Assembly: GCA_900552555.1 (NCBI GenBank)
Contig: URZW01000003.1
Location: forward strand, 40,680 to 104,679
DNA from: an uncultured Clostridium sp.
Lineage (GTDB): Bacteria > Bacillota > Clostridia > TANB77 > CAG-508
Length of the DNA stretch: 64,000 nt
Direction of reading: 5' to 3'
The translations under genes were made by a program, and so were the position numbers. Shown one piece after another: positions 33,688 to 38,596 of the stretch. The notes beneath the pieces were generated by a model. The model did not search any database and was not told where the DNA came from. It worked only from the letters and a program-made list of their open reading frames with translations. Positions within the stretch are counted from its first letter, which is position 1. Each line of letters starts with the position of its first letter.

Positions 33688-33891
33688 CTATTTACTTAGT
33701 AGTTTAATAGATTTAACAATATCAGATAAAGAATAGTAATATTGTGTAGCAATATCTTCTAAATCTTGTTGTTGTGAAGAAGTAAAATCACTATTTTTGA
33801 TTATGTCTTTAATTTCTTCTTTGTAACTTTCAATATTACTTTCAAGATAGTTATATATATCTGATTTTGAAGATATATTTTTAAGATTCAT
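33688..33891 (-). CDS. Phage ORFan on the opposite strand (67 aa)
   Basis: RBS GAGGTGA. It is convergent with the early operon. Confidence 0.4.
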   Translation of the reverse strand: MNLKNISSKSDIYNYLESNIESYKEEIKDIIKNSDFTSSQQQDLEDIATQYYYSLSDIVKSIKLLSK

Positions 33892-37179: not shown

Positions 37180-37462
37180 GTGAACAATATAACAAAAGAA
37201 ACAAGGAAAGAAAGTTATAAAAAATTAGAATTAAAAAAGAAAAGCAAATTAATATATGACAACTTAGATGGAGAATATACAGCAAGAGAATTGGCAAATA
37301 AATTGTATAAGAAGCGGATTAACAAGAACGGCAGAAAGACAAGAAACAGCACCACGATTAACTGAATTAGTAGAGTACGATTTAGTAGAAGTAGTCGGCA
37401 AGAAATTTGATTCAATAAGCAACTGTAATGTAGCAGTTTATAAAAGAAAAGGAGAAACGTAA
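37180..37462 (+). CDS. Small basic protein region: two overlapping ORFs (37180-37365, 37268-37462), possibly one frameshifted HTH-like gene
   Basis: Both frames give plausible peptide. The second frame reads LTRTAERQETAPRLTELVEYDLVEVVGK. Confidence 0.3.
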
Positions 37463-37463
37463 A

Positions 37464-37790
37464 ATGTTAAAATTATTTAAAAATTTGAATAAAAAATCAG
37501 AAGTAAAAATATGTGAATATGCACAAAAGAACATAAATGAATTATCAAGAATTATAAATAGACCTCACGAAGGTGAAATAGTTAGAATAGAAAACATTAA
37601 AATAAATAAAAAATTCAAGTCTCCGCAAGATGAAAAGTTAAGAAAAAGATTGGAGTATTTTGGTAAACACAATTATTTTAGAAGTACAATTATTTTAAAT
37701 AATAAAAATTATCTTGTTGATGGATATACAACATATTTATTAGCAAAAGATATGAAATTTGATTATATAACAATATTAAGAGAAAAATAA
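37464..37790 (+). CDS. Phage protein, possibly ParB/Srx-like nuclease domain
   Basis: 108 aa; LVDGYTTYLLAKDMKFDYITI weakly resembles the ParB N-terminal motif. Confidence 0.35.
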   Translation: MLKLFKNLNKKSEVKICEYAQKNINELSRIINRPHEGEIVRIENIKINKKFKSPQDEKLRKRLEYFGKHNYFRSTIILNNKNYLVDGYTTYLLAKDMKFDYITILREK

Positions 37791-37849
37791 AATATTTGAA
37801 AAAGTTTATACAAATTTGGAATTAAGAATAATAAAATAAAAACCCTCAC

Positions 37850-37948
37850 TTAGGAGGGCTGAGCACTTATTATGATAAATGCTACAAATAATGAAAACAA
37901 TAAAACTGTAAGATGAGCTAATAAAAAGCCTTTAATGAAATCTTTCAT
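37850..37948 (-). CDS. 32-aa hydrophobic peptide, type I toxin-like (MKDFIKGFLLAHLTVLLFSLFVAFIIISAQPS)
   Basis: Strong RBS AAAGGAGGCAG 6 nt upstream of the ATG. One TM helix after a charged N-terminus. Its 3' end overlaps a plus-strand hairpin (CCCTCACTTAGGAGGG). Confidence 0.45.
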   Translation of the reverse strand: MKDFIKGFLLAHLTVLLFSLFVAFIIISAQPS

Positions 37949-38134
37949 ACTGCCTCCTTTAGTGGGGTGTAGAGATACTAAAGTATCTCAAAAAATTATT
38001 AAGTTAAATAAATTATAGCACTATATTAAATGAAAGTCAAAAAAGGCAATACAAACAGATTATATAAAAATTAAATGGAAGGAACATAAGAGATGATTGA
38101 AGTAAACGAATATGTGAAAACAGATTTAAAGTAG

Positions 38135-38596
38135 GTGAAGAAGATGAATAGAGAGATAAAGTTTAGAGGAAAAATGATACCAGAAAATGAATGGATTTTT
38201 CGAACAATATTAAGAATACCAGCTCCACCTGTATGTTTTGGAAAAAGTGAAACAGATAAATACTATATACAGTTTCCAGACCCAAGATATATGCCAGACT
38301 GGAATATGCCATATAAAATGGTACAAGGAGAAGTAAATGCAGATACAATAGGACAATACACAGGACTAGACGATAAAAACGGAAAAGAAATATACGAGGG
38401 AGATGTAGTATATTGTCAAACAAAATATGGAAAGGCAAAGGCAATAATTAAATTTATAGATGGCAAATTTGCAGCATATTGGAATAGTGCACTTACGCAT
38501 CCAGAAAATGGACATCATATTGCTTGTTATGAAATAAACAAAAGATTTGAAGTAATTGGAAATATATACGATAATCCAGAGTTATTAGGAGGCTAA
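38135..38596 (+). CDS. YopX-family phage protein
   Basis: C-terminal hallmark EVIGNIYDNPELL and the motif GKEIYEGD. Confidence 0.75.
   Translation: MKKMNREIKFRGKMIPENEWIFRTILRIPAPPVCFGKSETDKYYIQFPDPRYMPDWNMPYKMVQGEVNADTIGQYTGLDDKNGKEIYEGDVVYCQTKYGKAKAIIKFIDGKFAAYWNSALTHPENGHHIACYEINKRFEVIGNIYDNPELLGG

Follow-up and report, generated by a model that had tools for sequence, protein, structure and literature searches.

Type I toxin messages share a set of hallmarks compiled in T1TAdb, namely pairing of the Shine-Dalgarno (SD) sequence with an anti-SD, a 5' stem-loop, a 3' terminator and a long-distance interaction that links the 5' end with the 3' end (PMC8594479). In the AapA1 message the SD is sequestered by such a 5'-3' interaction (PMC5416894), and the antisense RNA of the Gram-positive families is placed on the 3' side, in overlap with the mRNA (PMC8594479). 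Prophages of Clostridioides difficile carry toxins of this general class, CD0977.1-RCd11, CD0904.1 and CD0956.3, which were unannotated, are 34-47 amino acids (aa) long and hydrophobic, and are preceded by AGGAGG (PMC7699646). Phage morons, for their part, are defined by insertion between adjacent genes, by a promoter and terminator of their own and by a deviant base composition (PMC3594210). Here we describe a gene for a 32-aa hydrophobic peptide that lies on the minus strand of a prophage in an uncultured Clostridium sp. (contig URZW01000003.1, positions 40,680 to 104,679; this stretch of 64,000 nucleotides is called the window, and all positions below are counted within it). The gene occupies an optional 239-bp cassette, and its predicted message resembles those of type I toxins.

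A complete minus-strand gene for a small hydrophobic peptide

A preliminary description of this locus had proposed a minus-strand 32-aa open reading frame (ORF) with a strong SD, encoding a charged N-terminus followed by a single hydrophobic segment, and both points stood up to closer analysis. The ORF (Table 1) is preceded by the ribosome-binding site AAAGGAGG, in the upstream context AAAGGAGGCAGT-ATG, with the SD AGGAGG at 37953-37958 on the minus strand, i.e., a full AGGAGG-N4-ATG initiation site stands in front of the 32 codons. Translation and hydropathy give a charged N-terminus, a hydrophobic core of about 21 residues and an uncharged C-terminus, SAQPS, without a Lys-rich tail. The mean Kyte-Doolittle hydropathy of residues 8-28 is 2.6-2.9 (for the alleles V1 and V2 described below), and the predicted topology is single-pass with the N-terminus inside.

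Hydrophobicity alone is no evidence in this DNA. The phage plus strand is 45% A, and because the minus strand is T-rich, small minus-strand ORFs are often transmembrane (TM)-like; by composition this is true of 33 of the 111 small minus-strand ATG ORFs in the prophage (about 30%). When both strands of the 64-kb window were searched for hydrophobic ORFs of 20-70 aa with a correctly spaced GGAGG-class SD, the 32-aa ORF was the sole one found.

The ORF is flanked on its own strand by a predicted promoter and a predicted terminator. The -35, TG and -10 elements of the promoter are unchanged across all alleles, the spacer differing at two positions only. As for the hairpin that holds the stop codon, the preliminary description had read it on the plus strand, as the possible end of a convergent RNA. 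Read on that strand, the hairpin has 5 bp (-8.2 kcal/mol, followed by UGAGCACUUAUU), one G.U pair having turned into a C.A mismatch. In contrast, read on the minus strand it has a 7-bp stem (-9.7 kcal/mol) followed by UUUUUAUUUUAU. The longer stem and the U-tail thus belong to the minus strand only, which makes the hairpin the ORF's own terminator. A consensus scan found AGCCCTC-CTAAGT-GAGGGTT followed by TTTATTTTAT on the minus strand (one terminator-like site against 0.2 expected), and no T-run of four or more occurs on the plus strand anywhere in 37838-38140. Since the terminator is specific to the minus strand, plus-strand transcription of the phage should pass through the cassette.

Because the promoter lies upstream and the terminator downstream on the same strand as the ORF, we regard this as a complete minus-strand gene; judged from its sequence, the combination of ORF, promoter and terminator is a full transcription unit with predicted ends. 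A chance arrangement is disfavoured, since the ORF/SD combination is unique in the window and is joined by an 11/12 promoter and by a terminator in excess of expectation.

The gene sits in a gap of 344-353 bp between a 108-aa gene (37464-37790) and yopX (38135/38144-38596; Pfam YopX, E=3.6e-22), both of which are on the other strand. The gap, the opposite orientation and the yopX neighbour all agree with the preliminary description, whereas its 'ParB-like' label for the other neighbour does not hold, the 108-aa gene having no Pfam match and a PHROG ParB-like match at E=0.06. No relatives of the 108-aa gene were found in viral contigs. The location of the peptide gene in the replication/early region (between a DnaB-helicase module and yopX) and the uncharged SAQPS end speak against a holin. 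A lipoprotein signal (LLAC in V2) was considered and rejected, as just four hydrophobic residues precede the Cys and V1 has a His in its place. A 27-aa ORF on the plus strand at 37935-38018 has no SD.

Table 1. Features of the cassette and its boundaries, in window positions.
Feature	Position	Strand	Basis or remark
Accessory insert of 239 bp (promoter, leader, ORF, terminator)	37838..38076	minus	Comparison of filled and empty sites
32-codon ORF, single-pass hydrophobic peptide, allele V1	37850..37948	minus	Translation MKDFIKGFLLAHLTVLLFSLFVAFIIISAQPS
SigA/sigma-70-type promoter, TTGACT-17 nt-TGC-TATAAT, extended -10	38012..38040	minus	11/12 consensus plus TG; start predicted at about 38005
5' leader stem-loop, GAGAUAC-UUUA-GUAUCUC	37972..37989	minus	7 bp, -8.1 kcal/mol
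C-rich leader element and SD (ACCCCACU-AA-AGGAGGC)	37952..37968	minus	5' partner of the predicted long-range helix
Internal hairpin, codons 21-30	37860..37886	minus	In every predicted fold; within the nucleotide-invariant 3' block
Rho-independent terminator (predicted), AGCCCUC-CUAAGU-GAGGGUU + UUUAUUUUAU	37831..37860	minus	Stop codon UAA in loop; 5' arm is the anti-SD (CCUCC)
Left boundary copy of an imperfect 8-nt direct repeat, AATAAAAT	37830..37837		Alignment of filled and empty sites
Right boundary copy of the repeat, AATTAAAT	38069..38076		Same sequence as at the empty site
Fossil 3' end of a DUF1064 gene (..KIFEKVYTNLELRIIK*)	37783..37839	plus	Fixed anchor on the left of all copies of the insert

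A predicted message that closes over its own ribosome-binding site

We folded the RNA from its predicted start at about 38005 to the end of the U-tail (about 165-175 nt, both ends being predicted). All four of the type I toxin-mRNA hallmarks listed at the outset are predicted in it. The full transcript has a minimum free energy (MFE) of -41.9 kcal/mol (z=-4.3), and 0 of 200 shuffles fold equally well. The MFE fold contains a 15-bp long-range helix in which the leader at 37952-37968, SD included, pairs with 37842-37859, i.e., with both terminator arms and the stop codon. This closed fold beats the best fold that keeps the terminator hairpin by 4.8 kcal/mol. Closure is predicted in all alleles (P about 0.93), for any start from 37992 to 38020 and with either 3' end tried; it is lost if the 5' end is about 47 nt longer.

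The predicted cost of opening the region from SD to AUG is 11.4-11.8 kcal/mol in the full-length RNA, as compared to 4.1 +/- 2.1 kcal/mol (maximum 8.4) in 27 strong-SD genes of the window taken in the same geometry. In nascent RNA, in 3'-trimmed RNA or with an unrelated GC-rich terminator in place of the native one, the cost is 5.5-8.0 kcal/mol; that in silico swap lowers it from 11.7 to 7.8 kcal/mol, and in silico trimming of the 3' end weakens the occlusion without abolishing it. The duplex between leader and terminator is predicted at -21.3 kcal/mol, an energy so rare that 18 of 42,652 sequence windows reach it. As modelled, then, the design of the mRNA matches that of type I toxin messages.

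In V2, the 5' arm of the 5' stem-loop reads GAGGUAC, an A-to-G change with which pairing is kept only as an RNA G.U wobble. Because the V2 arm pairs solely in this way, an RNA element is favoured for the stem-loop, and a DNA operator palindrome, which we had also considered, is disfavoured. A MITE-like element (miniature inverted-repeat transposable element) with terminal inverted repeats was rejected as well, given that the inverted-repeat partner of the terminator is the internal leader and is not terminal. Separately, the singleton changes in V2 copies (contigs L072, L081 and L083; about window positions 37965-37968) all fall inside the 8-nt C-rich ACCCCACU, where selection on the lock's strength may be relaxed or diversifying, or the assemblies may be noisy.

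Conservation of the cassette and three alleles of the peptide

Three alleles of the peptide were found, each of 32 aa: V1 (MKDFIKGFLLAHLTVLLFSLFVAFIIISAQPS), V2 (MKNIIKGFLLACLVVLSFSLFVAFIIISAQPS) and V3 (MKDIIKGFLLACLVVLSFSLFVAFIIISAQPS). V2 and V3 retain the start, the stop and the length of the ORF, and a metagenome scan together with two further viral scans returned no allele beyond these three. V1 and V2 differ at 11 nucleotides of the ORF, all within codons 2-20, of which about 7 are nonsynonymous and about 4 synonymous; five residues are altered, and one codon change, TTA to CTG, is doubly synonymous. No indel falls within the ORF; those seen are in the leader T-run and in the DNA upstream of the -35 element. 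When 11 random substitutions were simulated, the ORF stayed intact in 42% of cases, and 4.9% of the intact ORFs had five or fewer residue changes. These figures give modest support to protein-level selection on the peptide.

At the nucleotide level, V1 and V2 show no difference at the 58 positions of 37831-37888 or at the 17 positions of the leader at 37952-37968; they differ at 12 of 63 positions in codons 1-20 and at 5 of 48 in the left flank. The last 12 codons of the ORF are unchanged across the alleles.

The peptide has gone almost entirely unrecorded. The exact V1 sequence is absent from a collection of about 15 billion proteins, with no gene on record, and just one allele is on record there as a protein; a phmmer search of 1.84 billion representatives matched V2 only. 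The gene tables of five cassette-bearing contigs call no gene in the gap. Searches of Pfam, NCBIfam, PADLOC (E up to 10) and PHROGs gave no relevant match for the peptide, and when 50,697 phage records were searched with the peptide (tblastn) and with the DNA of the gap, nothing relevant came up, the lone match being an unrelated YopX in a Vibrio phage. Two pattern searches gave candidates that were discarded: a degenerate MKDFIKGF pattern had 16 chance matches inside unrelated proteins of a genome collection, and the leader pattern alone had 13 unrelated matches in viral contigs.

An optional cassette at a variable phage locus

The promoter, leader, ORF and terminator together form the accessory insert of Table 1. 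Ten syntenic contigs (L006-L015), which carry a 90%-cluster variant of the 108-aa gene, lack the insert, and their flanks abut. In the contigs with an identical 108-aa gene (L001-L005), the gap is 99.7-100% identical. The insert is also found at 99.7-100% identity in L016-18, L059, L060 and L066, and as diverged alleles in 14 more contigs. On the promoter side its neighbours comprise at least five unrelated genes, namely two YopX variants, the MIEVNEY.. family, MEEQINLF.., MKDWTGNN.. and a methyltransferase-like gene. On the other side, an intact or truncated DUF1064 gene (Pfam E=2e-36) precedes the cassette in 7 viral-contig and 13 metagenome loci, L016-18 and most of the V2/V3 contigs among them, with its stop codon 1 nt from the terminator stem. 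The viral-contig copies (L016-L018, L041, L044, L047 and L050) all come from one IMG/VR dataset (3300045988), and the metagenome copies come from several independent assemblies.

Because it is absent from ten syntenic relatives and stands beside at least five different downstream genes elsewhere, the cassette behaves as a phage moron. Like a moron, it adds DNA between genes that are direct neighbours in related phages, and it has its own, predicted, promoter and terminator. Its GC content is 26.8%, that of the prophage is 27.4%, and the strand composition is likewise the same. The 32-aa gene is on the same strand as the lysogeny module; from this and from the constitutive-type promoter we infer that the prophage would express the cassette in the lysogen. 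The 8-nt repeat at its boundaries may be due to chance in AT-rich DNA.

Both flanks also bear marks of other rearrangements. The similarity to DUF1064-context phages sets in abruptly at 37783, 8 bp ahead of the plus-strand 108-aa gene's stop codon, and this places a recombination junction at the end of that gene, which has taken the place of most of a DUF1064 gene. A 13-codon plus-strand ORF at 38094-38135, MIEVNEYVKTDLK*, with an SD of its own, is the truncated N-terminus of a 106-116-aa 'MIEVNEYVRT..' gene, and appears to be a deletion scar directly upstream of yopX; the longer gene follows the cassette in L004, L016, L017 and L066.

Search for an antisense antitoxin

A type I system requires a second component, and the preliminary description had suggested a convergent antisense RNA ending at the hairpin. 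We found no plus-strand promoter of at least 9/12 inside the cassette and no plus-strand terminator across it, so that suggestion is not borne out. Two plus-strand sites of 9/12 do lie in the left flank, TTTATA-16-AATAAT (37805-37832) and TATACA-19-TAAAAT (ending at 37837). Both are within the DUF1064-derived coding sequence and are present in cassette-less phages too; overall, 10 promoter-like sites were found against 7.8 expected from shuffles. With no terminator and no T-run of four or more across the cassette, a discrete plus-strand small RNA does not seem to be encoded. Searches for an Rfam antitoxin family found none at the gathering score or at E up to 10, no trans-complementary RNA partner was found in the window, and there are no extra cassette copies or tandem repeats, the cassette being single-copy.

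The proposed match to toxins of the Fst/TxpA/Ldr type fared no better: the peptide shows no similarity to any family, the known type I toxin families Fst/Ldr, TxpA/BsrG, Hok, Ibs, TisB, C. difficile CD0977.1-like and Hol-Tox included, its charge polarity is reversed and it lacks the Lys-rich C-terminal tail (cf. PMC7699646). What survives of the proposed prophage toxin module is a stand-alone membrane-peptide gene with a predicted toxin-like mRNA design, the antisense partner not having been found. The gene is toxin-like in design and, on the modelled fold, would work like a type I toxin message; since its second component was not found, we do not file it as a type I system.

A proposed mechanism and its alternatives

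The account that we favour, though we put it somewhat short of an even chance, is that of a moron expressed from the repressed prophage, with a message locked by its own terminator, a peptide that is membrane-active and harmful at high dose, and silencing by antisense read-through when the phage is lytic. The cassette would be a moron of temperate phages in a low-GC gut Firmicute, a minus-strand unit opposing the plus-strand early operon. Its near-consensus constitutive promoter would yield the RNA of about 165-175 nt, which, once released, would adopt a new fold with both terminator arms paired to the C-rich leader and the SD. Such a message would be plentiful yet poorly translated, as in the hok and aapA1 toxin mRNAs. 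The peptide would be membrane-active and harmful at high dose, and the repressed prophage would hold it at a low or conditional level, with a role in maintenance or defence. During lytic growth, the early operon would read through the cassette, because the terminator works on the minus strand only, and the resulting perfect full-length antisense would silence the gene. The part of the antidote would in this way be played by operon read-through rather than by a dedicated small RNA.

Several observations weigh against this account. The charged tail seen in Gram-positive type I toxins is missing from the peptide. The GC content of the cassette does not deviate from that of the phage, as it does in a typical moron. 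The ordinary genes that serve as the control for opening energy were folded as arbitrary 175-nt windows and not as real transcripts. Covariation was sought for the long-range helix and not found, the four natural changes there all being uncompensated (leader singletons in L072, L081 and L083, and a recurrent U-to-G at 37842 in L050, L070 and L081). Among 49 GGAGG-containing leaders, the -21.3 kcal/mol duplex leads narrowly (the next reach -20.2 and -18.7), and because the lead is so narrow the pairing is in large part that of a plain strong SD with a CCUCC stem. The support for protein-level selection is modest, with about 7 nonsynonymous to about 4 synonymous changes. Lastly, the early operon would be off in the lysogen, which would deprive the gene of its antisense at the very time it is on; RNA folding alone would have to hold a truly lethal peptide in check.

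Possible, if doubtful, is that the peptide is harmless, a small membrane protein of a moron for lysogenic conversion or superinfection exclusion, comparable to HK97 gp15 though far smaller, which would be made from the prophage, enter the membrane and block the DNA entry of other phages or modulate a host membrane complex while low translation keeps it tolerable. The moron anatomy with its presence/absence polymorphism, the strand shared with the lysogeny genes and the lack of an antitoxin would all fit, and a small inner-membrane moron product that excludes phages provides a precedent (PMC3594210). However, the exclusion proteins known so far exceed this peptide several-fold in size, neither PADLOC nor PHROGs returned a match, and exclusion would leave unexplained both an SD occlusion above that of all 27 other strong-SD genes of the window and the nucleotide invariance of the 3' third. 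We consider it unlikely that the locus is an antitoxin-less variant of a type I system, with the terminator as the anti-SD lock of a toxin message that is made constitutively and early-operon read-through as the sole antisense; synthesis would be tied to the lysogeny/lysis state, and the peptide would be a stand-by membrane poison released when the lock is broken, e.g., by 3' trimming or by RNA damage at superinfection. A canonical type I pair seems quite unlikely. In such a pair a dedicated, constitutive antisense small RNA, starting from the left flank near 37840, would overlap the toxin mRNA at its 3' end, the arrangement of all Gram-positive families, and neutralise it, and cells cured of the prophage would die. 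It would account for the toxin-like design predicted for the mRNA and for the nucleotide invariance of the overlap block 37831-37888, as expected if both strands were functional; the weak 9/12 sites are placed as in Gram-positive systems (PMC8594479), and prophage type I systems are known to stabilise prophages (PMC7699646). But those sites belong to DUF1064 coding sequence of phages without the cassette and do not exceed the shuffle expectation, the plus strand lacks a terminator or a long enough T-run, neither Rfam nor the toxin families gave a match, and the gene is single-copy without tandem repeats.

It is improbable that the RNA is the product and the ORF incidental or secondary. A promoter directed against the early operon would then damp or delay yopX and the downstream genes, by interfering with transcription or by forming double-stranded RNA with read-through transcripts, and lysogeny would be stabilised or the lytic programme timed. 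This would suit the convergent near-consensus promoter within the operon, the highly structured RNA, the conservation of the 3' third at the nucleotide rather than the codon level and the weak signal in the ratio of nonsynonymous to synonymous changes (dN/dS). Yet the predicted transcript overlaps no coding sequence or ribosome-binding site of a neighbour, as about 70 nt separate its start from the next SD and its end lies 1 nt past the upstream stop codon; because both ends fall short of the neighbouring genes, it is complementary to the insert alone. A full initiation site and 32 codons kept intact in three alleles are also unlikely to be incidental. Most improbable of all is a secreted signalling pro-peptide of the SHP/PrgQ/Phr type, in which an export signal would precede a short C-terminal product, cleaved for instance after ..ISA. 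Short hydrophobic pheromone precursors may resemble the 32-aa peptide in their size, in their charged start (MK) and in their hydrophobic body, and the last 12 codons are the ones that never change between alleles. Nevertheless, no tetratricopeptide-repeat (TPR), RRNPP or Rgg receptor or regulator is adjacent in any of at least five contexts (DUF1064, YopX, methyltransferase-like and unknown genes), the insert holds the peptide gene only, and a three-residue product would be unprecedented.

If its peptide is membrane-active, the gene would add an orphan family to the maintenance/defence repertoire of human-gut temperate phages and would be a compact case of a terminator serving as a translational lock. 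Should the peptide be harmless, the cassette would still stand as a clean moron of very small size. Prophage genes for small hydrophobic peptides routinely escape detection. The natural occurrence of filled and empty sites makes the effects of the cassette on prophage stability, induction and superinfection directly testable.

Prophage context

The window begins with host genes (FtsK, PNPase and a P-type ATPase; low GC, 27.7%) and continues into the prophage, which runs from a tRNA gene through the integrase, a split repressor and DnaD-like and DnaB genes to the structural genes. The host PNPase of the window is also found in human and bovine gut metagenome contigs. The tRNA genes are on the plus strand at 30110-30182, beside the integrase and likely the attachment site, and at 42890-42962, within the prophage at the early/late boundary. 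By analogy with the gene table of L003, the minus-strand repressor is split into an 83-aa, S24 peptidase-like part (31785-32036) and a 93-aa, helix-turn-helix (HTH)-like part (32149-32430); other relatives have a single HTH and S24 repressor of 214-219 aa.

Two further observations concern the early region. The overlapping plus-strand ORFs at 37180-37365 (61 aa) and 37268-37462 (64 aa, +1 frame) match successive stretches of one phage family, phrog_1123, at profile positions 10-60 and 58-97. Since the 61-aa ORF has 87% identity to the 76-aa gene called in L006 at this position, the split is possibly conserved, i.e., a frameshifted or two-part gene and not a sequencing error. An acidic 67-aa minus-strand ORF at 33688-33891, inside the plus-strand early region, belongs to no confident family. 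Many relatives have a called minus-strand gene of 67 aa at the corresponding position, so the ORF may be a second opposite-strand accessory gene.

Comparison with known systems

The message of the 32-aa gene is close in predicted design to those of aapA1/IsoA1 of Helicobacter pylori and hok/sok of plasmid R1, where likewise a hydrophobic peptide of about 30-50 aa is encoded by an mRNA closed 5'-3' over its SD (PMC5416894). The predicted closure here has 15 bp and would take about 4-5 kcal/mol extra to open. Those systems differ in having a mapped antisense RNA, an SD freed by 3' processing and Gram-negative hosts. In the present gene it is the terminator arm itself that provides the anti-SD; the gene's sequence resembles neither system, and no antisense gene is detectable. 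With the C. difficile toxins, the gene shares an unannotated hydrophobic peptide, AGGAGG and a low-GC gut Firmicute prophage (PMC7699646). The C. difficile peptides, however, have a hydrophobic N-terminus and a Lys-rich C-terminus, occur in several homologous copies per phage and are paired with antisense RNAs that have their own promoters (PMC7699646), whereas in the 32-aa peptide the N-terminus is charged and the final SAQPS carries no charge, and its gene is single-copy with no detectable homology or antisense gene.

The bsrG/SR4, yonT/SR6 (SPbeta) and txpA/RatA (skin) systems of Bacillus subtilis also encode small membrane peptides on Firmicute prophage-like elements. Their convergent antisense RNAs overlap the 3' end (PMC8594479, PMC5848175), the position that is most conserved in the cassette. 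All three come with a discrete antisense small RNA under a promoter and a terminator of its own, unlike the present gene, for which none is predicted and which has no Pfam, NCBIfam or Rfam match. A charged C-terminal tail is not obligatory for type I toxins, since the Ibs peptides of E. coli are very short and hydrophobic and have none. In contrast to the 32-aa peptide, they are 18-19 aa long, are wholly covered by a full-length antisense, the Sib RNA, and are present in multiple copies; Rfam gave no Sib-like RNA here, and the peptide shows no similarity to Ibs.

Gene 15 of HK97 is a moron that, like the cassette, is inserted between genes adjacent in relatives and has its own promoter and terminator (PMC3594210). 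Its small inner-membrane product is expressed from the prophage (PMC3594210), as we infer for the cassette. Compared with classic morons, the cassette does not deviate in GC content and, at 239 bp and 32 aa, is much smaller; it is an early-region element carried on the opposite strand, and would encode a self-occluding mRNA. Nothing about the gene is categorically new, and its function is conjectural, but its anatomy is unusually clean; going by its sequence, the peptide family is a new orphan among the small hydrophobic peptide genes and morons carried by prophages.

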